Shown in pieces: positions 5,145 to 55,846 of a DNA stretch of 64,000 nucleotides. The translations under genes and the position numbers were made by a program. Position 1 is the stretch's first letter; every line of letters begins with the position of its first letter. Source of the stretch: an uncultured bacterium (GTDB taxonomy: Bacteria > Patescibacteriota > Minisyncoccia > Phycocordibacterales > GCA-2401445); assembly GCA_937952265.1 (NCBI GenBank), contig CALFYW010000016.1, forward strand, positions 398,661 to 462,660, read 5' to 3'. A model generated the notes under the pieces. That model was not told the DNA's origin. It ran no database searches and saw only the letters and a list, made by a program, of their open reading frames with translations.

Positions 5145-5158
5145 CTTACCACTCACTA

Positions 5159-6281: not shown

Positions 6282-6308
6282 GCTTCTCTTCGGTGGTAGA
6301 GACTTTAT

Positions 6309-17056: not shown

Positions 17057-17063
17057 GATATGT

Positions 17064-17453
17064 TGGCAACTATGCCTATAAGCCGAATTCTGTACTGATG
17101 CCATAGCGGAATCAGCGATAGTCATTTATCTAGCCCTATAATTACTTATAGGGTCAAGCGGCACTCTGAAATCTTAAAAAGAGATCAGCACGGCCTTGCA
17201 CTTAGGTAAGGATTTAGCCGTTTCAATTTTTACGTTACCGTAAAAACTCATCCATTGTTATGATCACAGTGGATGTCAGACTGCTTTCGCATCCTGACGT
17301 CTCTGCTCGCACCTCTATCCATAACATAGTTAATAAATTATGGATTGACGGGCGTTACCCGCTACCGTGCTCCGAGCTTTTAATGGCTCGGAAGTGTTCG
17401 GACTTTCCTCTCCAGGAGTTAAACTCCTAGAGCGACTATCCGGCATAATCACT
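17064..17453 (-). ncRNA. rnpB: RNase P RNA (bacterial type A-like), rnpB.
   Basis: The reverse complement contains GAGGAAAGTCCGAACAC (P4 5' strand) and ACAGAATTCGGCTTATAGGCATAG (P4 3' strand plus P1), as well as AGATAAATGACTATCGCTG, GGTAACGCCCG and a P3 hairpin (ctaggag-ttta-actcctgg). The P1 pairing TTATGCC / GGCATAG defines the ends. Length ~390 nt. Confidence 0.8.
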
Positions 17454-29574: not shown

Positions 29575-30822
29575 GTGTCGCGACGCAATTTTCTCATAAG
29601 TAAGAAAAAATACGGAGTTTTTTTAATAATGAGCCTCGGTGTCGTGAGCGTCTTTCTGTTTGTGTTTTTGGTAATTCCAGACCTCTCTTCAATCACCTAT
29701 GGATCACCAGAAAAAGAGACAGCATCCATTTCAGTAAGAGAAGTTGTAAATACAGAACCATTAGTGAAAGAAGTGCTGCACCTCCCCACACCTCAAGAGG
29801 TAAAGGGGATTTATATGACAAGTTGGGTTGCAGGAACCCCATCTCTTCGGGATGAGCTCATTGCGCTCATTGAAGAAACCGAACTCAATAGTCTGGTTCT
29901 TGATATTAAGGATTATAGTGGAAAGATCGCGTTCAATGTATCTGACCCACTGCTTCTCTCGTACGGGGCTGTTGAAGAGAGGATTCCTGATATCAAAGAG
30001 TTAATCCGTGATTTGCACGATCGAGGTATTTACGTGATTGGAAGAATCTCTGTCTTTCAAGATCCGCATCTTGCGCACCATCGCCCCGACCTCGCGGTGT
30101 TACGAGAGAGTGATGGCAAGGTGTGGCGCGATTACAAAGGTCTCTCATGGCTTGATCCTGGGTCCCCTGAGGTTTGGAAGTATATTATTGCCCTCGCGCG
30201 TGAATCACACGAGCTCGGTTTTGATGAAATTAATTTTGATTATATTCGATTCCCTTCAGACGGAAATATGAAAGATATTTATTATCCTTGGAGTGAGGAA
30301 TCAATAAATGCATTTAAGCCCGCATCAAGCACGGAGAGTATTATACGGACAGGGAAATCCGATATTATTCGCCGTTTTGGGGAATATGCAAAAAAAGAGA
30401 TGCAAGGCACGGGCGCCGTGCTTTCTGCTGATTTTTTTGGTATGACTGCTACCAATATCGATGATTTAAATATTGGACAATTGCTTGAGAACGCGCTCGA
30501 AGCATTTGATTATGTCTCGCCTATGGTCTATCCATCTCATTATCCTTCAGGATTTCTTGGGTATCAAAACCCTGCTTCATTTCCTTATGAGATAGTCCAT
30601 TACTCAATGGAGCGCGCGGCTGCACGGGCGAGCACTACCCCAGAGAAGATCAGGCCGTGGCTTCAGGATTTTGATTTAGGTGCAGATTATTCGGGAGCAG
30701 AGGTTCGTGCGCAAATACAGGCAACCTATGATGCGGGCCTTACAAGCTGGCTATTGTGGAATGCATCGAATCGCTACACCAGAAGCGGTCTCGAGCCATC
30801 TGAGGAAGTATTGACGCGGTGA
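29575..30822 (+). CDS. Putative TIM-barrel glycoside-hydrolase-like protein (DUF4015/GHL family) with a signal anchor.
   Basis: The N-terminal TM and motifs WLDPGSPEVWKYIIALARE and GFDEINFDYIRFPSDG resemble GHL/DUF4015 proteins from memory. The track start at 29575 is GTG; an ATG at 29629 is an alternative. Confidence 0.4.
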   Translation: MSRRNFLISKKKYGVFLIMSLGVVSVFLFVFLVIPDLSSITYGSPEKETASISVREVVNTEPLVKEVLHLPTPQEVKGIYMTSWVAGTPSLRDELIALIEETELNSLVLDIKDYSGKIAFNVSDPLLLSYGAVEERIPDIKELIRDLHDRGIYVIGRISVFQDPHLAHHRPDLAVLRESDGKVWRDYKGLSWLDPGSPEVWKYIIALARESHELGFDEINFDYIRFPSDGNMKDIYYPWSEESINAFKPASSTESIIRTGKSDIIRRFGEYAKKEMQGTGAVLSADFFGMTATNIDDLNIGQLLENALEAFDYVSPMVYPSHYPSGFLGYQNPASFPYEIVHYSMERAAARASTTPEKIRPWLQDFDLGADYSGAEVRAQIQATYDAGLTSWLLWNASNRYTRSGLEPSEEVLTR

Positions 30823-31128
30823 GTGATGAGGCATACTATGATCTATAGACCATAGGGAGCGCAATTGCTACTCTCACTATGTATGGTTTCTTAACGTTCA
30901 TGCGAAAGGGCGAAAGGAATGCAATGAAGAGGAGAAACACCAAAAAGAAGAAGGTGTCGCGCGGGGATGATAGCAGTGATGCAGGCGGTGACGAAATACA
31001 CCAGAAAGGTTGTGTCATTGTCTGCAAGTCTCCTCTGTCTGCTGGGGAAGTATTTTCCCCGGGAAGTAGCTCGCGTCATCGTGAAAGGTTTTATCTCCAC
31101 GAATGATTGATGGGCACACTCAGTAAAA

Positions 31129-31173
31129 GCCCTAACCGTGTTTCGATTTTGTATACACGGTTAGGGCTTTTTT
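31129..31173 (+). terminator. Strong hairpin plus T-run (12-bp stem gccctaaccgtg / cacggttagggc, 15-nt loop, TTTTTT), ending 3 nt before the ATG of the VirD4-like gene.
   Basis: Read directly from the sequence. It overlaps the 5' part of the track ORF 31107..32948, so the real start of that gene must lie downstream at 31176. Confidence 0.6.
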
Positions 31174-31175
31174 GC

Positions 31176-32948
31176 ATGTCTGATTTAACCTATACTGTAT
31201 ATATGGTTAAAGAAAATACGATCACCTTTTTTGCTCAAACTGATTCCCGAAATCGAAAGATTCCTTTTGGAATCAAATCTCATGATCGTACGAAGCACAT
31301 GTATGTTATCGGGAAAACCGGTATGGGAAAATCAACGCTTCTCGAAAATATGGTAGTGCAGGATATTCAGAATGGAGAAGGGGTTGCGTTTATTGATCCG
31401 CATGGAAAATCTGCAGAACTGCTTCTTGATTATGTACCACGAGAGCGAATCAATGATGTACTTTATTTCGCGCCGTTTGATATGGAGCATCCAGTTTCTT
31501 TCAATGTAATGGAGGATGTGGGTGCTGATAAACGTCATTTGGTCGCTAATGGTTTGATGAGTGCGTTCAAGAAAATCTGGGTTGACGCATGGTCGGCCCG
31601 AATGGAATATATTTTAAATAATATCCTCCTTGCATTGCTTGAGTATCCCGGTTCGACACTCATTGGGGTTAATCGGATGCTTGCAGATAAAGACTATCGA
31701 AAGAAGGTGGTTGAGAATATCACTGATCCCTCGGTCCGGTCATTCTGGATTGATGAATTTGCTCGATATGGCGATCGATATATGCAAGAAGCTGGGGCCG
31801 CAATTCAAAATAAAATTGGCCAATTTATTTCGAACCCGCTTGTCCGTAATATTATCGGCCAACCGAAATCAACCTTCGATATTCGCACACTCATGGATGA
31901 TCGGAAGATTTTAGTGATCAACCTTTCTAAGGGGCGCGTCGGTGAGGCAAACGCAAATCTTTTAGGGAGTATGATCATTACTAAGATCTATCTTGCGGCT
32001 ATGTCTCGAGCAGATGTGCACGATAAGGTGCTTCAAACACTGCCCAACTTTTATTTATATGTTGATGAATTCCAGTCTTTTGCGAACGAATCCTTTGCGG
32101 ATATTCTTTCTGAGGCCAGGAAGTACAAACTTAATTTAACGATTGCGCATCAATATATTGAACAGATGTCGGATGAGGTACGAGCTGCGGTGTTTGGTAA
32201 TGTTGGAACCATGATTACGTTTCGGGTTGGCGCCTATGACGCGGAAGTGCTCGAAAAAGAATTTTCTCCGCAATTTAGCGCTCAGGATTTAGTGAATTTA
32301 GGATTTGCGCAGATTTATTTGAAACTCATGATTGATGGTATCAGCTCGCACCCATTCTCTGCGACCACACTAACTCCTATTGCGCCACCCCCGGAAAGTT
32401 TTAAAGAAAAAATTATCACACATTCTCGAGAAACTTTTGCTCGGCCGAGAGCAGAGGTTGAAAAAGAGATACGCGATTGGCATCAACCCGAATCAGTAAC
32501 TACAGAACAAAGAAATCAAAAGCGAGAAGGAGGTAGTGGGGGAAATTATCACCGCGGTAAGACGGGAGTTTTGCCTCAAAAAGAAGAAGAGAAAAAAAGA
32601 GAAATCTCAAATTATCAGACCCCTCGTTCGGTAATGGTTCCGCTTGATTCATTAAAGAAGAAAAATCATCAAAAAGGTGGAGAAGGGCATTCGAAACCCT
32701 TAATGAACAAAAACCCTTCACCAAAAAATATGTCTGCATTGCGGGAGGCGCTTTCAAGGGCTATGGAAAAACATGAGGAAGATAAAAAAGAAAATCAGAA
32801 ATTAAATCCCGAGAAGAAAGAAGAAGCACCAGAATCAATTCTGAAGGAGAGGGAAAAAGAAATGCGTCCTTTTGTACCCCCTCGGCGCGAGATCCCGGAA
32901 GAAGCATTAAGAAAGGTTCTTGATGTTCCAAAGCCGGAAAAGCAATGA
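31176..32948 (+). CDS. P-loop ATPase of the VirD4/TraD/TrwB (type IV coupling protein) or DUF87 superfamily, with a ~170 aa K/E-rich disordered C-terminal tail.
   Basis: Walker A VIGKTGMGKST, Walker B FYLYVDEFQSF and LVINLSKGRVGE. The C-terminal third is low-complexity, K/E/R-rich. Confidence 0.5.
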   Translation: MSDLTYTVYMVKENTITFFAQTDSRNRKIPFGIKSHDRTKHMYVIGKTGMGKSTLLENMVVQDIQNGEGVAFIDPHGKSAELLLDYVPRERINDVLYFAPFDMEHPVSFNVMEDVGADKRHLVANGLMSAFKKIWVDAWSARMEYILNNILLALLEYPGSTLIGVNRMLADKDYRKKVVENITDPSVRSFWIDEFARYGDRYMQEAGAAIQNKIGQFISNPLVRNIIGQPKSTFDIRTLMDDRKILVINLSKGRVGEANANLLGSMIITKIYLAAMSRADVHDKVLQTLPNFYLYVDEFQSFANESFADILSEARKYKLNLTIAHQYIEQMSDEVRAAVFGNVGTMITFRVGAYDAEVLEKEFSPQFSAQDLVNLGFAQIYLKLMIDGISSHPFSATTLTPIAPPPESFKEKIITHSRETFARPRAEVEKEIRDWHQPESVTTEQRNQKREGGSGGNYHRGKTGVLPQKEEEKKREISNYQTPRSVMVPLDSLKKKNHQKGGEGHSKPLMNKNPSPKNMSALREALSRAMEKHEEDKKENQKLNPEKKEEAPESILKEREKEMRPFVPPRREIPEEALRKVLDVPKPEKQ

Positions 32949-34447
32949 AAAGTTTTTGTTTCTACCTCGGTATCATAGTAGGGTGTTCTATTTTCCCGTT
33001 TTCCGCGGAGGCGCTCGTGGTTACTGAAATCATGTATGATCTGCCAGCAGGAGATGCCGGGCATGAATGGATTGAAGTATACAACGATAGTGATACTGAG
33101 ATTGACCTTACCCTCTGGAGGTTTTTCGAAGGAGAGCAAGGTCACTTAATAAAAAATGCTTCTGGGAATCCACCACTTCCCCCTCAAGGGATTGCCATCA
33201 TTGCGGATAATGAAGCGCAATTCAGAGCAGATTGGCCGTCATTTTCTGGAAGTCTCTTTGATAGTAGTTTTTCTTTGCACAATACTGGTGAAGAGCTTTC
33301 ATTTAAAGATGAAAATGGATTAGTGCATGGAAAAATCACCTATGCTTCAGAGTGGGGCGGGTCTGGCGATGGGAACTCCCTCTCTCTTTTTCAGGGGGCG
33401 TGGCATGGCAGGAGTCCTTCGCCAGGCACTTTTGATAAAACATCCGATGATACGAGCGGGACTTCCCAAGATCAAGATGGGTCACATGAATCTAGTTCTT
33501 CAGAAACTATTGATCCAGTAGCGAAGCCAAAGAAAGAATCACAAGCATCATTTGTGGTGCCCAATATTTATGCTGAAGCACACATGAATCAACGAGCAGT
33601 TGTGGGTGCGCAGAGTGAGTTTACTGCGGATGTGTTTGGGCTTCAAGGAGAACCAATTGACAATGCTCGATTTTTATGGAATTTTGGAGATGGTTCAGTT
33701 CAGGAAGGGAAGCGTGTTTACCACGCCTATGAGTATCCCGGTTCTTATGTGGTGGTGCTTTCCGTGAGCGCGGGGAAATACCATGTTACTGATCGTGGAG
33801 AGATAGTAGCAGTGTCTTCTCCAATCAATGTAAGTAATGCGGTAAGTATGGGGAATGAAGGGTTTATTGAGGTTTCTAATACAGGGGATTTTGAGATTGA
33901 TATATCTCGTTGGATCCTATCTCACGAAGATCGACATTATGTGTTTCCCAAATATAGCATCATTCGGGCTCGTGCCGAGACGCGTTTTCCCTTAAAGACA
34001 ACCCTTATTGCCTTAAATCAGGCATCTCCTATTGTACTCTCGTATCCAAATGGCATTACTGCATCGACATATCATTTTCCTATCTTACGCACCGCAGATC
34101 ATGAAGGTACGGTGGTTCCGGATGTGGTACGAAGAGAAGTGGTATCAATAGAATCATCGAATATCCAAAGTGGGGCGAATATCGCACCTGCTTCCTTAAG
34201 CCAGAGCGCATCCGTAGCGTTTACAATTCCTGGTGAGAGCGAGTTATCAGAATTGAGCACCTCATCAGACGATGGCTCTCGTGCTGAAGCTTTGATTCAG
34301 ACTGAAATTGAAACCAATGAGACGTCAGGGAATTCTCTCGCGTGGATTCTCGCATTTACCTTTATCGTGGTGATTTCGGTACTCGGCATTATTTTTATTC
34401 GACGAGAAAAACAAGATGAAGATAATGACATTACCTTATTAGATTGA
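32945..34447 (+). CDS. Lamin-tail-domain (LTD) surface protein with a signal peptide and a C-terminal TM anchor.
   Basis: VVTEIMYDLPAGDAGHEWIEVYN...DLTLW is the LTD signature. A second beta-rich region and a C-terminal hydrophobic anchor (LAWILAFTFIVVISVLGIIFI) follow. The ATGA junction with the upstream ATPase gene indicates translational coupling. Confidence 0.6.
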   Translation: MKSFCFYLGIIVGCSIFPFSAEALVVTEIMYDLPAGDAGHEWIEVYNDSDTEIDLTLWRFFEGEQGHLIKNASGNPPLPPQGIAIIADNEAQFRADWPSFSGSLFDSSFSLHNTGEELSFKDENGLVHGKITYASEWGGSGDGNSLSLFQGAWHGRSPSPGTFDKTSDDTSGTSQDQDGSHESSSSETIDPVAKPKKESQASFVVPNIYAEAHMNQRAVVGAQSEFTADVFGLQGEPIDNARFLWNFGDGSVQEGKRVYHAYEYPGSYVVVLSVSAGKYHVTDRGEIVAVSSPINVSNAVSMGNEGFIEVSNTGDFEIDISRWILSHEDRHYVFPKYSIIRARAETRFPLKTTLIALNQASPIVLSYPNGITASTYHFPILRTADHEGTVVPDVVRREVVSIESSNIQSGANIAPASLSQSASVAFTIPGESELSELSTSSDDGSRAEALIQTEIETNETSGNSLAWILAFTFIVVISVLGIIFIRREKQDEDNDITLLD

Positions 34448-34448: not shown

Positions 34449-35612
34449 ATGAAGCATATTTTGATTTTTAGTACAAATTATCTACCCTCTCTCGGCGGTG
34501 CGGAGATTGCCGTAAAAGAGATTACGGATCGTATTCCTCGTGATCAATATTCATTCTCCATGATTACGGCTCGAATGTCTCGAAAAAATCCGGCACAAGA
34601 AGTTGTTGGAAACATCTCCGTATATCGGGTTGGGTTTGGTATTTGGTTTGATAAATTCCTTTTACCTTTTTTGGGAATGCGCGTTGCGCGTTCAATACAT
34701 AGCAGACAGCCGATCTCTCTTTTGTGGTCAATTATGGCAAGTCAGGGAGGAATTGCGGCGGTGCGTTTTAAACGCGTATTTCCAAAAATGAAGCTCCTGC
34801 TCACCCTTCAAGAAGGTGATGAAGAGACGCATCTCAGGCGCTATGTACTCGGTATTACATTTTTATACCGTCTTTTTATTCAACCTTTCTATCATTCAGT
34901 TTTTTTTGCCGCCGATTCAATTACGGTAATTAGTAACTATTTGAAAGCGCGTGCGGAGAGAATTGGGGTCCAGGTTCCAATTATCCGGATTCCAAATGGG
35001 GTAGATGTGGCACATTTCGAAAACCATGATTCTTGTTCAAAAGAAGTGTATCAAGGCAAAAAGGAAGGTGTCCGTTATCTTGTTACCGTATCACGTCTGG
35101 TGGAAAAGAATGGAGTCGATGATTTAATTAGCGCTTTTGCGCTACTTCCGAATACGACTCGTCTGGTGATTATCGGTACTGGTAAAGAGTATAAAAGGTT
35201 GTTACAGCAAACAATGCGGTTGGGAGTTAAAGATCGCGTTGATTTCTTAGGTATGATTCAGCACGAGATACTCCCGTGTTATTTAAAAGACGCGGATGTA
35301 TTTGTTCGGACATCACGCTCTGAAGGATTAGGAAACGCATTCCTTGAAGCAATGGCATCAGGTATTCCGGTAGTTGGTACTCCTGTTGGAGGTATTACTG
35401 ATTTTCTTCAACATAGGGTTACTGGATTTATAGCCCGTGTCGGAGATCCGGATGACATTAAACAGAAGATCCTATCCGCGTTAGAGGAAAATGAGTCGCG
35501 TTTACAAATACTGAATAACGCCCGTGCTTTGATCGATCGAGAGTATAAATGGAGTGTTATCGTCTCTCGCTTTGAGAAAGAAGTCCTTGATAAACTCACC
35601 ATGGGTCAGTAG
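34449..35612 (+). CDS. Glycosyltransferase family 4 (GT-B).
   Basis: C-terminal RTSRSEGLGNAFLEAMASGIPVVGT (E-x7-E) motif. Confidence 0.75.
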   Translation: MKHILIFSTNYLPSLGGAEIAVKEITDRIPRDQYSFSMITARMSRKNPAQEVVGNISVYRVGFGIWFDKFLLPFLGMRVARSIHSRQPISLLWSIMASQGGIAAVRFKRVFPKMKLLLTLQEGDEETHLRRYVLGITFLYRLFIQPFYHSVFFAADSITVISNYLKARAERIGVQVPIIRIPNGVDVAHFENHDSCSKEVYQGKKEGVRYLVTVSRLVEKNGVDDLISAFALLPNTTRLVIIGTGKEYKRLLQQTMRLGVKDRVDFLGMIQHEILPCYLKDADVFVRTSRSEGLGNAFLEAMASGIPVVGTPVGGITDFLQHRVTGFIARVGDPDDIKQKILSALEENESRLQILNNARALIDREYKWSVIVSRFEKEVLDKLTMGQ

Positions 35613-35634
35613 TATTGGCAGGGGTTTAAACGTT

Positions 35635-36744
35635 ATGGATTATAAAAATAAACGACGAATTCTTATTGCAACGGGTATCTTTCCTCCTGATATTGGAGGG
35701 CCTGCAACCTATAGTGCGTTACTAGAGAAAGAGCTTACCACTCGAGGTTTTACCGTAAACATCGCATCATTTTCTTCGGTGAGAAAATGGCCTCGCCTGA
35801 TTCGGCATAGTATCTTTTTTTTACGAGTGATAAAACGGGCGTGCTCTGCTGATACTGTTTTTGCCCAGGATCCAGTGAGTGTTGGATTCCCCGCATATTG
35901 CGCGGCGCGACTGTGTAGGCGTCGATTTGTCCTCAAGGTGGTAGGAGATTATGCATGGGAGCAGTATGCGTTAGCACATCCTCATAATTTCCCTACGATT
36001 GAAGATTTTCAGCACCTTTCTCTCGGTGGTATCACACTGCTTCGTCGCACGATAGAGCGATTTGTGGCTCGACACGCAGATGCGGTTGTGGTACCAAGCA
36101 TGTTTCTCAAGAAAATCATATTATCATGGGGGGTCTCAGCTGAACGGGTGCATGTGATTTACAATGCAGCCAATCTCCCAGATAGAGAGAATCATGATCC
36201 CCTCCTTTCAATCCCAGAAGGAGAACCGCTATTAATGAGTGCGGGACGAGAGGTTCCTTGGAAAGGCTTCGATCAGATTATTGACTCATTAACATTACTC
36301 GAGAAGAAATTTCCTCGCGTTAAACTTCTGCTTATTGGTGATGGGCCGGATCGGAGACGTCTTCAAGAAAAGGTAAGAGAACATAAAGTTGAACATCTGG
36401 TAGTGTTTCTAGGTAATTTAGAGAGAGAAACCCTCTTTAGGTATTTATCTTCTGCTGATATTTTTATTTTGAACACCCTCTATGAAGGTTTCCCTCATCA
36501 GATTCTTGAGGTTATGCATCTTGGTGTGCCTATTATTACGACTGATGTTGGTGGTATACGGGAATTAGTAGATGAGAGATCGGTGTGTTTTGTAAAGCCG
36601 AAAAATACCGAGGCATTGGTGAAAGCAGTAATATCAGTCCTTGGGGAATCTAGTATGAGAACGGAACGTATTGCCAACGCAAAAAAACGGGCAGCATCTT
36701 TTACAAGTCGTGATATGATTACTTCGCTTTTGCCACTCTTATGA
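35635..36744 (+). CDS. Glycosyltransferase family 4.
   Basis: EGFPHQILEVMHLGVPIITTDVGGIRELV. Start placed at the internal Met (MDYKNKRR) rather than the track start 35554, which overlaps the upstream gene. Confidence 0.7.
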   Translation: MDYKNKRRILIATGIFPPDIGGPATYSALLEKELTTRGFTVNIASFSSVRKWPRLIRHSIFFLRVIKRACSADTVFAQDPVSVGFPAYCAARLCRRRFVLKVVGDYAWEQYALAHPHNFPTIEDFQHLSLGGITLLRRTIERFVARHADAVVVPSMFLKKIILSWGVSAERVHVIYNAANLPDRENHDPLLSIPEGEPLLMSAGREVPWKGFDQIIDSLTLLEKKFPRVKLLLIGDGPDRRRLQEKVREHKVEHLVVFLGNLERETLFRYLSSADIFILNTLYEGFPHQILEVMHLGVPIITTDVGGIRELVDERSVCFVKPKNTEALVKAVISVLGESSMRTERIANAKKRAASFTSRDMITSLLPLL

Positions 36745-37877
36745 AATTGTTAATGATATCAAGTGATCAGAAAATATTTGAGGACAATAGTCCGGTACGG
36801 CAACGTATGGAAGCGTTTAGTAGTTCAGTTGACATGCTCCATATCTTAGTGATTGCGCGTCGCCATACCACTGAAGCGCCTGTTGTGTCTGGAAAGAAGA
36901 TGGTGATATATCCGATCACTATTAATTTTTGGGCTTTTAAGAAAATTTTTCTCGCGCTTCGAGAAGCGCGAGAAATCGTCCAAGCTGATATAACAGGGAG
37001 GTGGGTAGTCACTGCGCAAGACCCTTTTTTTATGGGGTTATTTGGATGGCTCATTGCGCGTAAAAAAATTCCACTTGAGCTTCAGGTGCACACTGATATT
37101 GGGAGTCCTTTTTTCGTCACAGAATCAATAATGAATCGAATAAAATTATCTCTTGCACGATTCCTCCTCCCGCGTGCGAGTCTTGTTCGTGTCGTATCAG
37201 TGCGTGTTAAAAATGCGCTCCTGCGTGATTTTAAGGTCTCTGAAGATCGTATTGTAGTATTGCCGGTATATGTGGATCCAAACCGAAGTGCTTTTCCCCA
37301 AGATGAGACCATGAAGAAACCGTATCCGATTACGATCCTCATGATGTCTCGACTTACCCCTGAAAAAGATTTTATCACCGCGCTCCGCGCATTTAAAATT
37401 GTCGCGCAAAAAAATCCAGACGCAGGGCTCCTTATCGTAGGGGATGGTCCAGACAAGAATCTCATTCAGAGGAAAGTTAATGATTTCTCACTTTTTCGAA
37501 AAGTTACTTTTTATCCGTGGAGTAGTGCGATTGGAACCTATTTTAAGCATGCTGATATTTTTCTGTTAACTTCTCGATATGAAGGATACGGAATGACTCT
37601 TATTGAAAGTGGGATGGCACGATGCCCGATTGTGACGACCGATGTTGGTATTGTTGGTGAACTTATTCAGGATCGCCAAAGTGCGCTCGTATGTCGCGTT
37701 GGAGACCATCGCTCTCTGGCACGAGCATTACAAGAGCTTATTGATGAACCTTCTCTGCGCGAAGCACTGCGCTCTCATTTTCGTGAATCTCTAACCCGAC
37801 ACCTTCCTGCGAACCAAGATATGTATCTTGCCCAATACAAACTCGCACTCCAGCGACTTTTTAGTGTTACCTTATGA
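36741..37877 (+). CDS. Glycosyltransferase family 4.
   Basis: SRYEGYGMTLIESGMARCPIVTTDVGIVGELI. ATGA overlap with the upstream gene. Confidence 0.75.
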   Translation: MKLLMISSDQKIFEDNSPVRQRMEAFSSSVDMLHILVIARRHTTEAPVVSGKKMVIYPITINFWAFKKIFLALREAREIVQADITGRWVVTAQDPFFMGLFGWLIARKKIPLELQVHTDIGSPFFVTESIMNRIKLSLARFLLPRASLVRVVSVRVKNALLRDFKVSEDRIVVLPVYVDPNRSAFPQDETMKKPYPITILMMSRLTPEKDFITALRAFKIVAQKNPDAGLLIVGDGPDKNLIQRKVNDFSLFRKVTFYPWSSAIGTYFKHADIFLLTSRYEGYGMTLIESGMARCPIVTTDVGIVGELIQDRQSALVCRVGDHRSLARALQELIDEPSLREALRSHFRESLTRHLPANQDMYLAQYKLALQRLFSVTL

Positions 37878-38908
37878 ACATTTTAGTAATTACTCAAAAA
37901 GTAGATCAAGATGATACCGTCCTTGGATTTTTTCATGGCTGGCTAAACGCATTGGGAGAAAAGTTTGACCATGTCTCGGTGATTTGTCTTGAGAAAGGAT
38001 CCACCGATTTACCTCAAGATATGCCAGTGTATTCCTTAGGAAAGGAATCGGGATTTTCGCGTATTCGTTATGTATGGAATTTATTTTTTTATCTTGGAAA
38101 ACTTCACCATCGTTATGATTGCGTATTAGTACACATGAATTATGAGTACGTACTTTTGGCTGGTTGGTGGTGGAGACTGTTTGGGCGGAAGATTGGATTT
38201 TGGTATAACCATACATACGGAAATATCTTTTCTCGTATTGCATTCATGATTGCGCACCGAGTTTTTCATACATCCCCCTTTGCTTTTTCAGCAGGAAGGT
38301 CAAACTCAGTATCTATGCCGGCTGGGATTGATACAAAACTTTTTTCAACTACTCAAAATCAAGTTCCTAACACTATTCTTTTTGTAGGTCGTATTGCTCC
38401 CGTGAAAGGGCTCATCACCTTAATTAAGGCTGTTCAACTTTTAGTTCAAAGGGGTGTTTCGGTTTCTCTTAACATATATGGAGAAGCGCTTTCTCGAGAC
38501 AGAAAGTATCAGGAGCGTGTTCACGTAGAGGCTCAAAATTTAGTGACACGTGGAATAGTGAAATTCCATAACGGGGTAGCCTATGATCAGGTACCGCAAT
38601 TATTTGCTTCACATGAGTTTTTTGTTAACCTCACTCCAAAGGGAAATTTTGATAAGACCGTGTTAGAGGCTATGGCTAGTGGTGCAATACCGGTGGTTTC
38701 AAGCACGGCATTCTCAGACCTCTTACCCCCACCCACTTTTTTTAAAGAGCATGACGCGGACGATCTTGCTCGCCAGCTCGAATATTTAATGAAGCTCTCT
38801 TTCGAGGAGAAGTCGAAGATTAGAGGGTTGTTACGCAAACGTGTCGAGAAGAAGCATGATCTCCATGTGCTCGTGTCGCGGTTAGCGGAAGAATTTGATA
38901 CATTATGA
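37874..38908 (+). CDS. Glycosyltransferase (GT4-like).
   Basis: FVGRIAPVKG...TVLEAMASGAIPVVSS. ATGA overlap. Confidence 0.6.
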   Translation: MNILVITQKVDQDDTVLGFFHGWLNALGEKFDHVSVICLEKGSTDLPQDMPVYSLGKESGFSRIRYVWNLFFYLGKLHHRYDCVLVHMNYEYVLLAGWWWRLFGRKIGFWYNHTYGNIFSRIAFMIAHRVFHTSPFAFSAGRSNSVSMPAGIDTKLFSTTQNQVPNTILFVGRIAPVKGLITLIKAVQLLVQRGVSVSLNIYGEALSRDRKYQERVHVEAQNLVTRGIVKFHNGVAYDQVPQLFASHEFFVNLTPKGNFDKTVLEAMASGAIPVVSSTAFSDLLPPPTFFKEHDADDLARQLEYLMKLSFEEKSKIRGLLRKRVEKKHDLHVLVSRLAEEFDTL

Positions 38909-40050
38909 TGAAGAAGATTTATTATATTGCAAATGCTCGGATGCCAACCGAACGAGCTCATGGTATACAACTTGCAAAGATGTGCGAAGCATTTCTTGAT
39001 ATTGGTGTTCCACTAACGCTCGTCGTTCCAAAACGTAAAACAGTAGGAGAGCAGGTCGCGTCTTTTTATGGACTTGCGAGAGAAATTCCAATCGTGAAGC
39101 TCCCTATTATCGACACGTTTCTTTTTGGTCGTCTCGGTTTTATTTTTGGGACGATTTCTTTTATGGCATCGTATAGCGTATTCCTTCTTCGGAAGAAACT
39201 CTCCGGGGAGGACTTTGTGGTATATACCATTGATATGGATCAGTTTTCATTTTTGCCACTCATTATATTTAATATTCCATATGTGATTGAAGTACACGAT
39301 GCAAAGCCGAAACGCTTTTTATTTCGGCTTTTATTTCGGCGTGCTCGGGCAGTGATGGTTATCAATCGTTTAATTCTGGAAAAGATCCATCGTTATTTTA
39401 ATGTGCCGAAACACCATATCTTTGTGGTCCCGAACGCCATTGATCCAAATTTTATGAATAAGGCTCAGCTAAGAGATGCTTTTCGAAAGAAAGAAGGTAT
39501 TCCACCTAAAGCGTTTCTTCTCTTATACGTGGGAAAATTTTACGAATGGAAAGGTTTTGAGATTTTATATCAACTCGCTCAAGACCTTGATCCTTCCGTA
39601 AACATTGGGTTGGTTGGAGGATCAAAGGAAGAACTCGAAGAGTTAATTGGAAAGCATGTCCCCGAGAATATATTTTGTTTTGGAGCTCGGCCTTATGAAG
39701 AGGTGCCGTCCTGGATCGAGGCTTCGGATGCGTTACTCGTGCTTGGAACTAAAGCAAATGAGTATTCTTATTACCATACATCCCCGATGAAATTATTTGA
39801 ATATCTTGTTTCGGGTCGCCCAATTATTGCAAGTAAGACCCCGGCGATTTGTGATATTGTGAGTGAGAAGGAAGTTTTATTTTATATGCCTGATGATAAG
39901 GAAGATTTAAAGCGCGCTATCTTACGTGTTCAATCGAACCCAGCATCCTTCCATAATCGAGTAAAAGCCGCAAAGGAGTTAAGCACCTCATTTACCTGGC
40001 ATTCTCGAGCGAAGAAAATTAATCAATTTATAAAGGACCGACTATCATGA
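38905..40050 (+). CDS. Glycosyltransferase family 4.
   Basis: SPMKLFEYLVSGRPIIASKTP. ATGA overlap. Confidence 0.65.
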   Translation: MMKKIYYIANARMPTERAHGIQLAKMCEAFLDIGVPLTLVVPKRKTVGEQVASFYGLAREIPIVKLPIIDTFLFGRLGFIFGTISFMASYSVFLLRKKLSGEDFVVYTIDMDQFSFLPLIIFNIPYVIEVHDAKPKRFLFRLLFRRARAVMVINRLILEKIHRYFNVPKHHIFVVPNAIDPNFMNKAQLRDAFRKKEGIPPKAFLLLYVGKFYEWKGFEILYQLAQDLDPSVNIGLVGGSKEELEELIGKHVPENIFCFGARPYEEVPSWIEASDALLVLGTKANEYSYYHTSPMKLFEYLVSGRPIIASKTPAICDIVSEKEVLFYMPDDKEDLKRAILRVQSNPASFHNRVKAAKELSTSFTWHSRAKKINQFIKDRLS

Positions 40051-41135
40051 GAATTGGCATTTTCCTTCATCCTTATAATGAAAAAAAACCAGCAGGATTA
40101 GGCAGGTTTATTTTCTATTTAAGCAGGCACTTGATTGAAAACGCGCCGCAACACACCTTTTACCTTTTTGTTAAAAGTGCCCCAAAGGTGAAGCCGGATA
40201 TCTCTGGTTCAAACTGGTCTGTCATAGAATGCGGCCGCGGATTATTTTGGATGGATCGTGGAATTTCAAAAGCGCCAAAAGCTGATATATACCTTTTTAA
40301 CACACCAATAATACCTGTTTGGAGAAGCGTGAAAAAAAGTGTGGTAATTGCGCTTGATTTTGCCTATCTTGATTTCCACTCTCCGGGCATACTACACGCG
40401 TTAAAACGATACATCCTTAAACAATACCACCGCTTCTCTCTTAAACGTTCTGATCAGATAATTGCAATCTCGCACGCGACAGAGGGGGATGTGATTCAGA
40501 GGTTTCATATTCCTCAACAAAAAATTCGTGTTATCTACCCCGGTTTTTCATCGGTGTGTGAGATAAGCCCTAAATATGTGTCGGTACCCAAACCATTTTT
40601 TCTTTTCATTGGGGTGATAAAAGAGAGGAAGAATGTACATGGAGTTATCGAGGCTTTTATAAAGCTTCTAAAAGAGGATGCGACAGTGTCTCTTGTGGTT
40701 GCGGGTAATGGAGAGGGGGATTACTATGAGCAGATTATATCGCGGGTAAAAACCGCGAATGCTCTTAATCGAATTTATTTTCTAGGTCATATTTCAGCAG
40801 CAGAAGTTTCTTATCTTTTTCAAAATGCGCGAGCGTTAGTATTCCCGAGTTTAACAGAAGGGTTTGGTTTTCCAGTACTTGAGGGTATGGAATGTGGTAT
40901 TCCCGTCATTACGTCAAATAGTTCGTCTTTAGTTGAGCTCGGAGGTGATGCCGCGTATTTAGTTGATCCGCGTGATCCCGAATCAATCTATAAGGGGATG
41001 AAAGCACTGCTTTATGATGAGAATATCCATCAAAAATTGATTCTTCGCGGTTACGAGCAAGTTAAAAAATTTTCTTGGAATCGTTCAGCCCGAGAATTTT
41101 TATTAGTGCTAGAAGAATTATGCGGCCAGAAATAA
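40047..41135 (+). CDS. Glycosyltransferase family 4.
   Basis: LTEGFGFPVLEGMECGIPVITSN. ATGA overlap. Confidence 0.75.
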   Translation: MRIGIFLHPYNEKKPAGLGRFIFYLSRHLIENAPQHTFYLFVKSAPKVKPDISGSNWSVIECGRGLFWMDRGISKAPKADIYLFNTPIIPVWRSVKKSVVIALDFAYLDFHSPGILHALKRYILKQYHRFSLKRSDQIIAISHATEGDVIQRFHIPQQKIRVIYPGFSSVCEISPKYVSVPKPFFLFIGVIKERKNVHGVIEAFIKLLKEDATVSLVVAGNGEGDYYEQIISRVKTANALNRIYFLGHISAAEVSYLFQNARALVFPSLTEGFGFPVLEGMECGIPVITSNSSSLVELGGDAAYLVDPRDPESIYKGMKALLYDENIHQKLILRGYEQVKKFSWNRSAREFLLVLEELCGQK

Positions 41136-42253
41136 GAAAAAAAATTTTAGTATCCTTAACGTTGGTGTGTTCACCCATACTTCTCTTGCTTCTACACTTT
41201 AGAAACACCCGAAAGTCTGAAAATCCGCGAATACTAGTTATTCCGCAACTGACCCGTATTGGTGATCTCATTTCTGTCACACCGATATTTCGGGAAATCA
41301 AAAGAAAGTTCCCTCACGCGTATGTTGCTGTATTAGTGAGTAAGAAAAACATGGGAGTAGTAATTGAAAATCCTCACATTGACGAAATCATTCATTATCA
41401 AAGCATTAGGTTATTTGCTGTTTTGAGAGCAATCTATCAGGGGCATTTTGATATAAGCATTAATGCGGGCGCAACGAGCGAAGGAACCGCTATATCCCTC
41501 TGGGGCCAAATCCCAGAGCGGATCAAGCTTACCTATTCAGGTCGTCCATTGTTTGAGGTGCTCACTGATTGGATGAACACGCACTCCATGCGATACACGC
41601 ATCAAACGTATCTCCCATCATTTTTTCTGCAACTTCTACATCCTCTTGGGATTAAGGCAGAGAATACCGATCCTGAAGTTTTCGTGACTCATCGTGGCAG
41701 AAAAGTGCGCGATAATTTTCTGGTCGAGAAAGGTATTCAGGGTGGGAAATATATCGGAATAAGTATTACGGCGGGAAATAAAATAAAAGAGTGGGGTGAT
41801 GATCGGTTTAAGGAGTTAATAAAAAAAATTCTTAACCGTTTTCCCTACTACATTTTTCTGATTGGAGGAGCGGGGGATCGGGAACGGATAATGAGCTTTC
41901 GGGAAAGATTTTCTCGAGAAGAAGCCGAACGGATCGTTCCTGTCTGCGGTATTCCGCTTGAAATACTTTCTGCCTTTTTTGAGAAACTCTCATTGTTTAT
42001 TGCGGTTGATACTGGTTTAATTCATATGGCACACGCGCTTGATGTACCACTTATTGATATTCTTGGACCGGTTGATTCAGAAGAGCTTTCCCCTAAGAGT
42101 AGGAAGAGCAGGTTACTGCTTCCGCTCAATACCAGACCGAGTGTCTTTGCTTTTAAGCGTCCCGGATCTGCGGAAGATGCTCGGCGCGCCCTTTCTTCTA
42201 TTAGTGTGGATCAGGTCGAGTCTGCATGTGAAGACCTTTTGTCGGAGAATTGA
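41119..42253 (+). CDS. Glycosyltransferase family 9 (ADP-heptose:LPS heptosyltransferase-like).
   Basis: LIGGAGDRERI...LFIAVDTGLIHMAHALDVPLIDILGP matches the GT9 C-terminal signature. Start at the Met (MRPEIRKK) at 41119. Confidence 0.65.
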
Positions 42254-42303
42254 ATCAACGAGGGTGAGAGGGTATAGTTCCATAAAGGGATATTTTATTT
42301 TTT

Positions 42304-42861
42304 ATGATGACAGCAAAAAAACTTAATCTTGGTTGCGGGACTGATATTCGATCAGGCTGGGTAAATCTTGACAAGTATGACCTTCCTGGTGTTGAGGTCG
42401 TACATGACCTTGAGGTACTCCCGCTTCCTTTTTCTGATCATTCTTTTGACGAGATTCTTTGTCAGGATATTTTGGAGCACGTGGCGTATCCAGTACTCCT
42501 TAAAGAGCTTTATCGGATTCTAAAGAAGGAAGGTGTTCTTAAGATTCGTGTGCCTCATTTTACCTCGAAAAATAATTTTATTGATCCAACACACCAAAAG
42601 ATGTTCAGTGTTCGAACTTTTTATTTTTTTGTTACTGATCATGGGTTTAAGAAATACCATCGAAAGTATTACTTTGATTTCTCTTTTAGAAAGATTACGT
42701 CATTGCGCATCACCTTTGAGGGGAGTTCTCGCTTTTTTTTCTATAATCGATTTATCGAGTGGGTAGTTAATAGGAGCGAGGATACCCAGTATCTCTATGA
42801 AGCGACCGGCTTTTCCCGTATTTTTCCTGCAGAAAATATAGAAATTACTTTAATCAAATAA
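42304..42861 (+). CDS. Class I SAM-dependent methyltransferase (Methyltransf_11/23-like).
   Basis: LNLGCGTDIRSGWVNLD...FDEILCQDILEHV. Paralogous to the gene at 55847. Confidence 0.6.
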   Translation: MMTAKKLNLGCGTDIRSGWVNLDKYDLPGVEVVHDLEVLPLPFSDHSFDEILCQDILEHVAYPVLLKELYRILKKEGVLKIRVPHFTSKNNFIDPTHQKMFSVRTFYFFVTDHGFKKYHRKYYFDFSFRKITSLRITFEGSSRFFFYNRFIEWVVNRSEDTQYLYEATGFSRIFPAENIEITLIK

Positions 42862-42869
42862 AATGTATT

Positions 42870-44081
42870 ATGAACATTGCGTTAATTGTACGAAGGCTTG
42901 ATACTCGCGGAGGTACCCAACGCCAAGCTCTTGCGCTTGCTCACACCCTAAAGGAGCGGGGAAACAATGTCGTAGTATACACCTTTCGATATCAACCATC
43001 AGAGACCTTCTCAGAATCGCTTAAAGGTATACGAGTTGTCGCACTAGATCAGAAAGAAGGTAAGGATTATTCGCACTCGATACCTTTTCTTCCGAAGTTT
43101 TTTTCAGATTATCTCAATGATAACCGATGTGCTCGTGCGCTTGCGCGATGTATTGATGTCGACACACACGTGCTTAACCCTCATGATCAAGTAAGTTATC
43201 GTGTCGCGGTGTATTTCAAAAAAAAGGTGAAACAAATTCCATCTGTGTGGATGATGAATGATATGCCCACTAAGTATGCGTCTATGATACGTGAACGAGA
43301 AGTATACGGATATCATCGAACTTCGCTATTAAAACGAATCATATATAAGTTTTTTGATTTCTTTGAGATCCGATGTTTTATCAAGCCACAAGATGCCATT
43401 GTTGTGTTAGATCATCGAGATAAAAAGTGGGCTCAAGAATTTTTCAAAAAAGATGCTTTTGTGGTACGAAGTGGTCTTGATCACAATCGTTTTACTTATC
43501 GAGAACGCACCCTGTCTTCAAATAAAAGGATTAATATTCTTACGACAAGCATTTTTCTTCCGCATCGGAGATTTGAAGACACGCTTCGTGCTATTCGGAT
43601 GCTTTTAAACACAAAAGAGTACGACATACAGTTCTCAATTGTTGGAGGATTTCATAATAAGGGATATGTAGAGTTTATTCGAAAAGTGATAAAGGAAGAG
43701 AAGCTTCAGCATAACGTGTCTCTCCTCGGAGCAGTCTCTGATGAGAAATTACAGGCTCTCTATAGAGATGCAGATATTTTTGTATTTGTGAGCCATATGC
43801 AGAGTTGGGGTATTGCGGTTTTTGAAGCGCTCGCATCAGGGATCCCAACAGTCGTATCAGAAACCACTGGAGCATCGGAAATTCTTAAGAATGGTCTTCA
43901 TGCGATAACAGTTCCTCCGAAAAATCCACGCAGGATTGCGGACGCGCTTAATACACTCATTACTGATCCAGATCTTTATCAGAGTTTAAGCAGAGAAGGT
44001 CGAGCTTTAGTACTCAGTGAGATCTCATGGGAGCAATATAGCAAGAAGATGGAGGCTATTATGGAACATGTTATGAGATAG
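42870..44081 (+). CDS. Glycosyltransferase family 4.
   Basis: SHMQSWGIAVFEALASGIPTVVSETTGASEIL. Confidence 0.7.
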   Translation: MNIALIVRRLDTRGGTQRQALALAHTLKERGNNVVVYTFRYQPSETFSESLKGIRVVALDQKEGKDYSHSIPFLPKFFSDYLNDNRCARALARCIDVDTHVLNPHDQVSYRVAVYFKKKVKQIPSVWMMNDMPTKYASMIREREVYGYHRTSLLKRIIYKFFDFFEIRCFIKPQDAIVVLDHRDKKWAQEFFKKDAFVVRSGLDHNRFTYRERTLSSNKRINILTTSIFLPHRRFEDTLRAIRMLLNTKEYDIQFSIVGGFHNKGYVEFIRKVIKEEKLQHNVSLLGAVSDEKLQALYRDADIFVFVSHMQSWGIAVFEALASGIPTVVSETTGASEILKNGLHAITVPPKNPRRIADALNTLITDPDLYQSLSREGRALVLSEISWEQYSKKMEAIMEHVMR

Positions 44082-44119
44082 TTTATCTGTTTGCGAAAGT
44101 AGGGTAGTATGTTGAAATT

Positions 44120-45466
44120 ATGAAGACCGTTGTAATTACCAGTTTTCACCCCCATATTTCAAGGAATATTTTAAGCACGGAAGCATTTCGTATTTTAGTC
44201 CAAAATCCAAAGCTTCGAATTGTGCTCGCGGTTCCTGATTATAAGGTGGATTTTTTTACTAAAGAATACGCTACCAACGAGCGCATTTCAGTATTTGGTA
44301 TTGAACCCTATCAGGCTTCTCGAACGCTACGCGGGCGATTTTTTAAGCGCCTAGGGGTATTTCTTTTTGATACCCAAACCGCTCGAAACAGAAAAAAATA
44401 TGAATACTATTTTCATGGTAAATATATTATTTATTATTTTTCTCGACTACTTGGTATAATTGGCCACTCTTTTATTTTTCGTCGATTGGTACGTTTTCTT
44501 GATCTGTGGTGCGCTCCAAAAACAAGTGCTTCACGCATGCTTTCTGAAATTAAACCGGACATGCTCTTTTCAACTGATCTTCAAAATGAAAATGATGTGA
44601 GCATCATGCACGCGGCACGCAAGGGAAAAATTCCTATTTTAGGAATGTTACGTTCATGGGATAATCCAACTCAGCGTATTCTACGAGTTTTACCAGAAAA
44701 AATGATTGTAGGGTCAAACGTGCTTGAAGAAGAAGTTCGCTTGCTGTATCGATACCCACCAGCACAAATCGTTATTACGGGAAATCCGCATTATGACCGA
44801 TATCTTAAGGGTCCCACGATGAGTAAGGATAAATTTCTAAAGTCTCTCAATCTTCCCCTCGATAAAAAACTTATTTTATATGCGCCAGTTAGTGATGCGC
44901 TCATCTACCATAATGATATTGATGAATATGTGCTCTCCCTACTTGGAGATGTTGACGCATCAGTATTAGTTCGTTTTCCTCCAGAAAAGCCGGTTCGTCT
45001 CTCGGGTGATTTTAAACAACCTCAGAACATGGTCTATGATCGTCCGGGCGTATCTTTTAATGCTCGTCGGGTTGGTGATCGTGAGATTCGTCGCGAGGAT
45101 GATAGTCGCCTTATTGATTCTTTGTATCATGCGGATGTGGTGGTAACTGGCCCGACGAGCATTACCATTGATGCTGCATTAATTGATCGTCCGGTAATCG
45201 CGGTTCATTTTTATCCTACGCCACGTGAGTTTTTCCGTTCTGTATACCGTTACGAGGATAATCAGATCGTTAAAGTTCGAGAAACGGGAGGTATTCATGT
45301 GAGCGTTACAAAAGAAGATTTTTTAAAAACTCTTGCTTCTTATTTAGAAAATCCAAGACGTGATGCAAAAGGAAGAGAGAAAATACGATCAATGTGGTTT
45401 TCGCATGCAGATGGAAGTGCTGGCAGGCGTGTGGCGGACGCGGTACTTGATTTTCTAACGGTATGA
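44120..45466 (+). CDS. TagB/TagF-family CDP-alditol/glycerol phosphotransferase-like protein (Glyphos_transf), paralog 1.
   Basis: SWDN motif, LILYAP, and ADVVVTGPTSITIDAALIDRPVIAV (cf. TagF LITDYSS...DKPIIFY). Confidence 0.45.
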   Translation: MKTVVITSFHPHISRNILSTEAFRILVQNPKLRIVLAVPDYKVDFFTKEYATNERISVFGIEPYQASRTLRGRFFKRLGVFLFDTQTARNRKKYEYYFHGKYIIYYFSRLLGIIGHSFIFRRLVRFLDLWCAPKTSASRMLSEIKPDMLFSTDLQNENDVSIMHAARKGKIPILGMLRSWDNPTQRILRVLPEKMIVGSNVLEEEVRLLYRYPPAQIVITGNPHYDRYLKGPTMSKDKFLKSLNLPLDKKLILYAPVSDALIYHNDIDEYVLSLLGDVDASVLVRFPPEKPVRLSGDFKQPQNMVYDRPGVSFNARRVGDREIRREDDSRLIDSLYHADVVVTGPTSITIDAALIDRPVIAVHFYPTPREFFRSVYRYEDNQIVKVRETGGIHVSVTKEDFLKTLASYLENPRRDAKGREKIRSMWFSHADGSAGRRVADAVLDFLTV

Positions 45467-46842: not shown

Positions 46843-46854
46843 TATTGTTTCGTT

Positions 46855-48252: not shown

Positions 48253-48253
48253 T

Positions 48254-49216: not shown

Positions 49217-49218
49217 TT

Positions 49219-51105: not shown

Positions 51106-51157
51106 GTGGTATATGTGATATGATGCTTTTTGTTTATTATTGTAACTTTCTTAAACC

Positions 51158-52747: not shown

Positions 52748-52770
52748 TCCTCTAAGGTTATAGTTAATAT

Positions 52771-55830: not shown

Positions 55831-55846
55831 TATTATTTAATTTTTT

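Follow-up and report, generated by a model that had tools for sequence, protein, structure and literature searches.

The question raised by this locus is what an ATPase of the coupling-protein kind does on a chromosome where no type IV secretion genes were found near it, and whether the surface protein whose gene overlaps its own is its partner. The locus lies in a stretch of 64,000 nucleotides from an uncultured bacterium of the Patescibacteriota (assembly GCA_937952265.1, contig CALFYW010000016.1, positions 398,661 to 462,660 of the forward strand), which we call the window and whose numbering we use throughout. Two plus-strand genes are at issue: the first, at positions 31203..32948, encodes a P-loop ATPase of 581 amino acids, and the second, at positions 32945..34447, encodes a membrane protein of 500 amino acids in which two lamin-tail domains (LTD) flank a PKD domain. 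The answer that we prefer, with a rough probability of 0.55 for its parts taken jointly, is that the ATPase is soluble and, among the FtsK-HerA pumping ATPases, falls in the VirD4/TrwB branch, that of the type IV coupling proteins (T4CPs); that in this lineage (class Paceibacteria, near Candidatus Taylorbacteria) its gene belongs, by its behaviour, with the housekeeping-like core genes of the chromosome and not with those of conjugative elements; and that the LTD protein would be an accessory envelope protein heading a glycan locus, at most an optional adaptor of the ATPase and not an obligate subunit.

The ATPase gene must first be delimited. The longest open reading frame (ORF) runs from 31107 to 32948 and offers ATG codons in frame at 31176 and at 31203. 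In 79 homologues, taken from species genomes of the Genome Taxonomy Database (GTDB), the N-terminus always lies three to six residues before a conserved motif, (I/V)TYFAETD. Since they align there, we place the start of the ATPase at ATG 31203 (MVKENTITFF...); the alternative start at 31176 is ruled out by the same alignment. The N-terminus is equally short in all 79 homologues, with the Walker A motif of the window protein beginning at residue 37, and no transmembrane segment was found in the protein: no 19-residue Kyte-Doolittle window reaches 1.6, the maximum being 1.18.

Assigning the protein to a class relies on sequence profiles, on a comparison with sequences of known structure and on a predicted model. 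Four Pfam models match weakly, above their gathering cut-offs, which are given here in brackets: T4SS-DNA_transf with 32.3 bits (20.1), DUF87 with 31.4 (23.2), TrwB_AAD_bind with 30.0 (20.5) and TraG-D_C with 23.0 (22). The FtsK_SpoIIIE model scores 15.9 bits, below its cut-off of 24, and covers the P-loop only, at residues 27-61. The NCBIfam models of full-length coupling proteins also stay far below their cut-offs, and their matches centre on the P-loop: TIGR03743 has 51 bits against 366, another model 39 against 648, and NF045973, whose alignment covers residues 35-352, 30.8 against 250. When all PDB sequences are searched with a profile of 42 homologues (alignment A1), five entries match at E of 1 or less, and the only two below 0.01 are TrwB entries (E 0.002). 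In this match the Walker A region and the Walker B/RK...Q region align to TrwB at equal spacing. The Walker A motif GKTGMGKST (G37 to T45, with K43, at positions 31311..31337) is invariant in A1 at all nine of its residues and aligns to the TrwB P-loop; the Walker B motif FYLYVDE (F283 to E289, with D288, at positions 32049..32069) also falls in invariant columns. After Walker B, residues R306-K307 and H316-Q317 (ARKYKLNLTIAHQ) align with GRKAGLRVVAGLQ of TrwB (HMMER, TrwB residues 279-321), and R306/K307 and Q317 are invariant across the 42 sequences.

The AlphaFold2 model has a mean predicted local distance difference test score (pLDDT) of 70.9, with values of at least 85 over residues 50-290. 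It shows a RecA-like core and, between the core strands, a helical insert at residues 108-232, again with pLDDT of at least 85. When the model is compared with the PDB by Foldseek, the top matches are DotL (1e-8), HerA (4d2i, 2.7e-8), TrwB and Cag-beta, and VirB4 comes lower; the alignments to TrwB span 410 to 450 columns, with a target-normalised TM-score of 0.53 to 0.58. No FtsK structure is among the 50 matches listed. An earlier note on this DNA, made from its letters by themselves, had proposed a P-loop ATPase of the coupling protein/DUF87 kind with intact Walker A and B motifs, and the four Pfam matches, the structural matches to DotL, TrwB, Cag-beta and HerA and the invariance of both motifs across the 42 homologues bear it out.

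An FtsK/SpoIIIE protein or a housekeeping helicase, on the other hand, is ruled out by the Pfam score below cut-off, the spacing of the Walker motifs and the lack of an FtsK fold among the matches listed. FtsK and SpoIIIE belong to the same superfamily, and in FtsK too a long disordered linker connects the motor with an element for localisation, although the order is reversed. The spacing between Walker A and Walker B is much shorter in FtsK. In the window ATPase, about 240 amino acids separate the two motifs (about 255 from first to last residue), filled by the alpha-helical insert, and there is no gamma domain.

The likeness to established T4CPs (TrwB of R388, VirD4, TraD, DotL and Cag-beta) lies in the P-loop domain, the all-alpha insert between Walker A and Walker B, the RK...Q motif and a C-terminal extension, present in both and likely to serve partner binding. 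The differences are as definite: the window protein has no N-terminal transmembrane domain and no linkage to relaxase or type IV secretion system (T4SS) genes, its tail is basic or of mixed charge with three short motifs instead of acidic, and its scores against the hidden Markov models (HMMs) of the family are marginal.

That tail occupies residues 431-581, or 151 amino acids (positions 32493..32945), and is delimited by composition, pLDDT and alignment A1. Lysine, arginine and glutamate make up 38% of it against 18% of the core, and most of it is predicted to be disordered, with pLDDT below 50 at residues 443-503 and 531-563; between these stretches, at 507-531, the model has a helix with values of about 62 to 80. 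The K/E/R-rich disordered tail that the earlier note described is thus found again, at 151 residues. Three conserved motifs stand out in it: SL..LK, which reads VPLDSLKKK in the window; N-x-S-x-L-R-x-A-L at residues 509-517 (positions 32727-32753); and, close to the C-terminus, E-(V/I)-P-E-x-x-L-R-K-x-L at residues 563-573 (positions 32889-32921). The last of them is recognisable in most loci, whether or not an LTD gene is the neighbour. As a side remark, a C-terminal peptide of the form (K/R)E(V/I)PE(D/E)VL(R/K)xIL behind a variable disordered linker loosely recalls, in layout and in sequence, the C-terminal peptide of FtsZ (DIPxFLR). No ftsZ gene was found in 1.9 Mb of related loci.

The second part of the answer concerns the kind of gene that we are dealing with. 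A homologue search gave at least 8000 candidates (clusters at 90% identity) with E at most 1e-10. Among the 120 matches listed, identity ranges from 60 to 83%, and those that carry a name, Taylorbacteria among them, are all Parcubacteria or Paceibacteria, the rest being labelled 'bacterium'. At least 545 matches come from GTDB species genomes, and Zambryskibacteria, Yonathbacteria and Nomurabacteria are represented among the loci. The median identity of homologues to the window ATPase, 63% when the full length is taken and about 76% for the core, is to be compared with 48% for MurC, 50% for MurD, 52% for RsmI, 49% for the DUF4015 protein encoded just upstream and 33% for the LTD protein. Coupling proteins of plasmids and mobile elements are expected to be more divergent than this. 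Gene order is preserved as well: Mur ligases, rsmI, DUF4015, ATPase, optionally LTD, and then envelope or glycan genes follow one another across dozens of species.

The existence of an orphan class of such ATPases is already published, since a survey of 2025 (PMC12102498) reports it. In that survey, VirD4-like T4CP homologues occur in 2,918 of 3,026 Patescibacteria assemblies (96%), and only 148 of 5,713 such homologues lie near virB4; VirB4 of the Patescibacteria clade is found in 2,407 of the 3,026 assemblies; the T4CP homologue is dispensable in Ca. S. epibionticum, where T4SS genes are essential; and the authors raise exaptation of the T4CP homologues as a possibility. The window ATPase almost certainly belongs to the same gene class. 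The passages of the survey that we consulted do not mention that a transmembrane domain is missing, nor do they describe motifs in the tail, the layout of promoter and terminator, the synteny with DUF4015 and glycan genes or an LTD neighbour; a literature search likewise gave nothing on LTD proteins in Patescibacteria or on the pairing of such a protein with an ATPase. What appears to be new here, by comparison with these sources, is therefore the anatomy of the ATPase, including these features and the phage relatives discussed below, together with a recurrent but non-obligate LTD neighbour.

A class assignment of this sort leads directly to an alternative: the protein could be a canonical coupling protein encoded far from its machine, feeding a T4SS of the Patescibacteria type (VirB4, VirB6/PrgH, VirB3, VirB8, TrsD and VirB2-like pilins, usually encoded near dnaA), and the LTD protein would be unrelated to it. 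Its fold and HMM class are indeed those of a T4CP, and the conserved C-terminal peptides are reminiscent of the tails with which T4CPs such as TraD bind their adaptors. That the protein has no N-terminal transmembrane domain speaks against a canonical member, as do the precise NCBIfam models of T4CPs, which are missed widely (51 bits against 366 in the case of TIGR03743), and a degree of conservation far above what general knowledge would lead one to expect of mobile-element coupling proteins. Nor is there a machine at hand: of the 49 window ORFs of at least 150 amino acids, 42 were compared with Pfam, and none matches a T4SS, pilus or competence family (five of the 42 are without any Pfam match), in agreement with what the earlier note had said of T4SS genes. 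No relaxase or T4SS family is among the recurrent gene clusters that we looked at in the 10 kb around the ATPase of 79 loci. The figures of the survey (PMC12102498) can be turned both ways. They say that T4CP genes are often far from virB4 and that most Patescibacteria carry VirB4, which suits a remote machine; they also put T4CP homologues in more genomes than VirB4 (2,918 against 2,407 of 3,026) and make the homologue dispensable where the secretion system is essential, which does not. On balance we hold the coupling to a remote secretion system to be rather improbable.

The relatives of the ATPase outside the Candidate Phyla Radiation (CPR) suggest a different alternative. Its best profile match overall is a phage family, phrog_5156, with 193 bits, and its closest non-CPR relatives are proteins of SPO1-like Bacillus phages and gp156 of phage G, at about 25% identity (Foldseek 6e-21, query-normalised TM-score 0.59); in Bacillus phage SP8, for example, a relative of the ATPase core (31203-32522 of the window) lies at positions 3747-6467 of locus L167. 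These 'VirD4-like' phage proteins also lack transmembrane segments. They are however 800 to 900 amino acids long, with an N-terminal extension of about 390 amino acids that is not found here, and their C-terminus is acidic. One could add to the phage matches two weak PADLOC matches, mad8 with 49.6 bits and HerA with 34 bits, and conjecture that the gene is a HerA-like anti-phage motor, or that it derives from a phage or an integrative and conjugative element. The fixed chromosomal place among Mur ligases, rsmI and DUF4015 over dozens of species, the near-universal presence of the gene, its very high conservation and the lack of any adjoining nuclease, Sir2, NurA, integrase or other effector gene make this highly improbable. 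HerA itself resembles the ATPase by its comparable fold-match scores and by the DUF87 match; it differs in that about 36 residues, forming three short strands (7-37), precede Walker A in the window protein, too few for a barrel of the HerA type, and in its partners, the neighbours here being DUF4015, LTD and family 4 glycosyltransferase (GT4) genes instead of NurA, Sir2 or a nuclease. We consider a HerA-NurA or defence system ruled out by these three short strands, the missing effector neighbour and the weakness of the PADLOC matches, and a mobile element or prophage by the fixed synteny.

We now turn to the surface protein, which Pfam, an alignment of 25 homologues (alignment A2), AlphaFold2, hydropathy and Foldseek describe as a type I membrane protein. 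From its N-terminus it consists of a signal peptide (residues 1 to about 24), a first LTD (24-156), a disordered linker rich in serine, threonine and aspartate (167-205), the PKD domain (208-290), a second LTD (294-376), another disordered linker (389-460), a transmembrane helix (461-488, positions 34325-34408) and a cytoplasmic tail of 12 residues ending in DNDITLLD. Pfam gives 59.7 bits to LTD, in two stretches (cut-off 34.3), and 40.6 bits to PKD_4; the model has beta-sandwiches at 24-156 and 294-376, with pLDDT above 90, and the first LTD bears the typical motif EIMYD..G.D..EWIE..N. The acidic and hydrophobic C-terminus on the cytoplasmic side (positions 34409-34444) follows the pattern (A/D)(D/E)(Y/F)xI(I/L)E in 23 of the 25 homologues, with the consensus ADEYEIIE. 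No conserved motif of the sortase or exosortase type precedes the helix in the 25 sequences. Pfam finds no hydrolase or other enzyme domain in the protein, and its structural matches are not specific to nucleic acids: the Foldseek neighbours of the ectodomain are the PKD domain of collagenase ColG and generic arrays of Ig domains from S-layer and adhesion proteins. Other bacterial proteins with LTD and PKD domains are likewise secreted and anchored in the membrane, and both domains score above cut-off here; the window family differs from them by a fixed LTD-PKD-LTD-transmembrane architecture, by the conserved acidic C-terminus and by the absence of a fused hydrolase, nuclease or ComEC-like domain. 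The earlier note had announced a secreted, membrane-anchored LTD protein, to which the PKD domain and the second LTD are now added.

The start of this gene is also worth a comment. The public call of an identical protein (P0121, 476 amino acids) begins 24 codons later, at GTG 33017, and loses the signal peptide; the N-termini of the homologues favour ATG 32945. With this start, the LTD gene begins within the stop codon of the ATPase gene, and the two overlap by the four nucleotides ATGA at 32945-32948, as noted before. Such an overlap is generic here, being found at 7 of the 20 junctions of the same-strand array that extends from 31.2 to 56.4 kb.

How often are the two genes neighbours? Among the 79 ATPase loci, 74 are informative in having at least 1.5 kb of downstream sequence, and we looked for LTD genes within 10 kb. 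An LTD-PKD-LTD homologue was found in 22 of the 74 (22 of 79 overall), and in all 22 it lies directly downstream on the same strand, overlapping the ATPase gene or at most about 50 nucleotides away; an iterated profile search added no further LTD match at ATPase loci. Viewed from the LTD side, in 80 metagenome loci, there are 43 relatives with the full architecture and enough upstream DNA: the ATPase is directly upstream in 31 of them, within 3 kb in two, and not there in ten. The pair is kept in Yonath-like genomes, where a peptidase M10 gene and recG lie downstream instead of glycosyltransferases. A homologue in Nomurabacteria (P0236), by contrast, is found elsewhere in the genome, between pfkB and ychF. 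On a neighbour-joining tree built from the ATPase cores, the loci with an LTD gene are dispersed, and this suggests that the arrangement is old and has been lost repeatedly. In about 70% of the related ATPase loci there is no LTD gene within 10 kb; combining the two conditional frequencies, one arrives at a rough figure of 60% for the ATPase-bearing genomes that have none.

These counts are the data on which the most attractive alternative must be judged. The earlier note had suggested that the two proteins form a device for ATP-driven uptake, secretion or adhesion, such as DNA uptake or host attachment, rather than a classical conjugation system. In the full form of this idea, as we set it out here, the LTD protein would be both the membrane adaptor and the receptor of the soluble ATPase, its ectodomain binding DNA or a host surface and its acidic cytoplasmic tail (D/E)(Y/F)xI(I/L)E docking the motor. 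That the pair recurs as neighbours stands, and with it much of what such a device would predict: same-strand adjacency in 22 of the 22 ATPase loci with an LTD gene in range, an ATPase directly upstream in 31 of 43 LTD loci, persistence of the pair in Yonath-like genomes despite other downstream genes, a scatter over the ATPase tree that suggests an old pairing, a cytoplasmic peptide kept in 23 of 25 homologues, and an ATPase without a membrane anchor of its own. The ATPase has also turned out to be T4CP-like, and not an FtsK or a helicase, with the LTD gene as its neighbour in many related genomes.

What does not fit is the behaviour of the ATPase when its supposed partner is missing. The tail motifs and core residues are the same in both groups of loci: no alignment column and no tail motif separates those with an LTD gene from those without, the largest difference in frequency at a column being 0.46, with conservative replacements of the kinds K/R and F/Y. 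The LTD protein evolves far faster (33% identity against 63 to 76%). Its gene is tied about equally often to GT4 genes, which lie downstream of LTD in 19 of 28 loci and in three of the eight among these without ATPase, and most ATPase loci run straight into GT4 genes. To this must be added the 70% of loci that lack the LTD gene, the homologue between pfkB and ychF, an ectodomain that matches generic Ig and PKD modules only, and an overlap that is generic in the array. A dedicated two-part device thus seems unlikely to us. A looser association may nevertheless exist: given its conserved cytoplasmic tail and the missing anchor of the ATPase, the LTD protein may be an optional adaptor. Among Gram-positive T4CPs, TraJ of pIP501 has no transmembrane domain and is recruited by the membrane protein TraI. 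By analogy, such soluble T4CPs (TraJ, and the CD1115 family, NF045973), which would likewise need a separate membrane protein, would be the best precedent for an LTD adaptor; they differ in sitting in conjugation clusters with a relaxase.

The reading that we prefer, a soluble T4CP-like core ATPase with an accessory LTD protein, must in turn face the points that weigh against it. As far as the predicted model can tell, HerA fits the fold nearly as well as the T4CPs do, and the pLDDT of the model drops to between 38 and 62 over residues 300-390. Because the HerA match is nearly as good, the placement among T4CPs rests on the all-alpha insert, the lack of an N-terminal barrel of HerA size and the weak HMM scores. 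On the side of the LTD protein, an ATPase in front of the gene in 31 of 43 loci, including L081 and L083, where the downstream context is different, and the conserved cytoplasmic peptide are together more than unrelated neighbours would predict. Finally, the loci compared are all fairly close relatives, and gene order may overstate or understate a functional linkage. Gene order alone cannot prove function here, because the whole block from the Mur ligases to the glycan genes is syntenic in the clade.

The region in front of the ATPase raises the question of how the two genes are expressed. A hairpin resembling an intrinsic terminator lies at positions 31125..31173 on the plus strand: a stem of 17 base pairs (31125-31141 with 31155-31171), a loop of 13 nucleotides and a run of T at 31168-31173. 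It is symmetric, with a run of A on its 5' side. The segment of 111 nucleotides that holds it (31100-31210) folds with -38.8 kcal/mol, z = -5.76, a value equalled by none of 200 shuffles. Such structures recur in the family: 18 of 77 homologous upstream regions, the window's included, contain a fold of -20 kcal/mol or lower no more than about 90 nucleotides from the start, many with a run of T following. The earlier note had seen both hairpin and T-run, and they are real; the distance to the gene was misjudged, since with the true start at ATG 31203 the run ends 29 nucleotides before it and not 3. The position 31129, from which that note had counted the region, falls inside the hairpin. We rejected the idea that the hairpin is a repeated element, its arms occurring once in the window. 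The sole other near-match to an arm, at 5127-5142 on the minus strand with three mismatches, is just past a chaperonin gene (3438-5078) and may be a terminator.

Between the hairpin and the gene lies a hexamer similar to a -10 box, TATACT (31190..31195, plus strand), which ends 7 nucleotides before the ATG. In 57 of 76 ATPase loci a hexamer matching TATAAT in at least five of six positions ends 3 to 14 nucleotides before the ATG, with a mode of 7 to 9; among 791 control genes of the same loci the proportion is 25%. Conversely, motifs of the Shine-Dalgarno type were found in none of the 76 ATPase loci, the leader of the window's ATPase included, against 10% of control genes. A TG at the extended -10 position is seen in 19 ATPase loci. 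Because the -10 box is conserved in 57 of 76 loci, it is most likely that a promoter proper to the ATPase lies behind the hairpin, and the need for read-through or an unusual promoter that the earlier note had seen finds no support. As judged from these motifs, this promoter is a candidate for the type that yields leaderless mRNAs, or mRNAs with a very short leader, and the simplest reading of the hairpin is that it would terminate the transcription unit of the upstream DUF4015 gene, with the ATPase opening a new one. From 31203 to about 56.4 kb we found no intergenic terminator of comparable strength; for this reason the LTD gene and some of the glycan locus may be under the control of the ATPase promoter as well.

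The DUF4015 gene itself (29575..30822, plus strand, Pfam 351 bits) encodes a membrane-anchored putative glycoside hydrolase. No family is met upstream of the ATPase more often than this one (cluster 3), which has that place in more than 50 of the 79 loci; in the window, the hairpin stands between the two genes. The gap of 380 nucleotides that separates them holds no conserved small gene and no known RNA that we could find: an Rfam scan with relaxed E-value limits gave only sub-threshold matches to microRNA hairpins, at the terminator stem, and the protein of 70 amino acids encoded in this gap in Yonath-like loci has no relative elsewhere. A gene for a protein resembling type IV pilins, with the N-terminus KGFTLIELLVVIAIIGIL, is directly upstream of the ATPase in loci L018, L020, L028, L050 and L072, and an N_methyl protein is found near DUF4015 in a Yonath-like locus (L083, 1-230).

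Further upstream, the window contains alr, a class II ribonucleotide reductase gene, an RNase P RNA, a TPR protein gene, murJ, lepA, murD, murC and rsmI, followed by DUF4015. The RNase P RNA, of bacterial class A (111.7 bits, 17063-17451, minus strand), is inserted between the plus-strand genes of the class II ribonucleotide reductase (ATP-cone) and of the TPR protein, of 846 amino acids. Downstream of the LTD gene, a tightly packed locus of 22 kb (34449..56422, plus strand, by Pfam) appears devoted to a glycan or a polymer resembling teichoic acid: it comprises nine GT4-type genes (Glycos_transf_1), GT9 and GT2 genes, two CDP-glycerol glycerophosphotransferases, several methyltransferases, AsnB and an LPG_synthase_TM protein. 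The ATPase borders such a glycan island in nearly all related loci. Beyond this locus there is a NeuB-cupin fusion, at 60621-62252. Five large ORFs, of 427 to 663 amino acids, have no Pfam match at E limits of 0.001, 0.0001 or 0.00001; they lie at 10553-11836, 46855-48252, 51158-52747, 56426-58417 (minus strand) and 58476-59855.

It is possible to sketch how these parts would work together if the ATPase is what we believe it to be. The protein would form a hexameric, ATP-driven ring at the cytoplasmic face of the membrane; the polymer that it moves would most likely be DNA, or possibly protein; and the conserved tail peptides would recruit it there through a partner present in all these genomes. 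In roughly 30% of related genomes the LTD gene would be co-transcribed behind that of the ATPase, and its product would be displayed at the surface as a stalk of Ig-like domains on a single transmembrane helix. Going one step further, one might picture the ATPase as a housekeeping DNA translocase of the Paceibacteria, tethered to the membrane by its tail peptides in a layout that mirrors FtsZ (core, linker, C-terminal peptide) and reverses that of FtsK, and the LTD protein, in the 30 to 40% or so of genomes that would have it in this role, as a trans-envelope adaptor whose ectodomain binds extracellular DNA or a host surface and whose cytoplasmic tail docks the motor. The two would then form an undescribed route of DNA uptake or exchange that does without nearby T4SS channel genes. 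We think this extension doubtful indeed.

The locus does provide experimental handles: a correct start, a promoter and terminator layout, a missing anchor, three conserved tail peptides and a surface protein, met repeatedly behind the ATPase, that crosses the membrane once and ends in a conserved cytoplasmic tail. Bacteria of the CPR, or Patescibacteria, are unable to synthesise many building blocks for themselves, and it is believed that they take up DNA and other molecules from their hosts. An ATPase present in about 96% of Patescibacteria genomes, by the figures of the survey (PMC12102498), better conserved than cell-wall enzymes and with no secretion system attached to it, is thus a strong candidate for an unrecognised core process of these organisms, such as the handling of DNA at the membrane.

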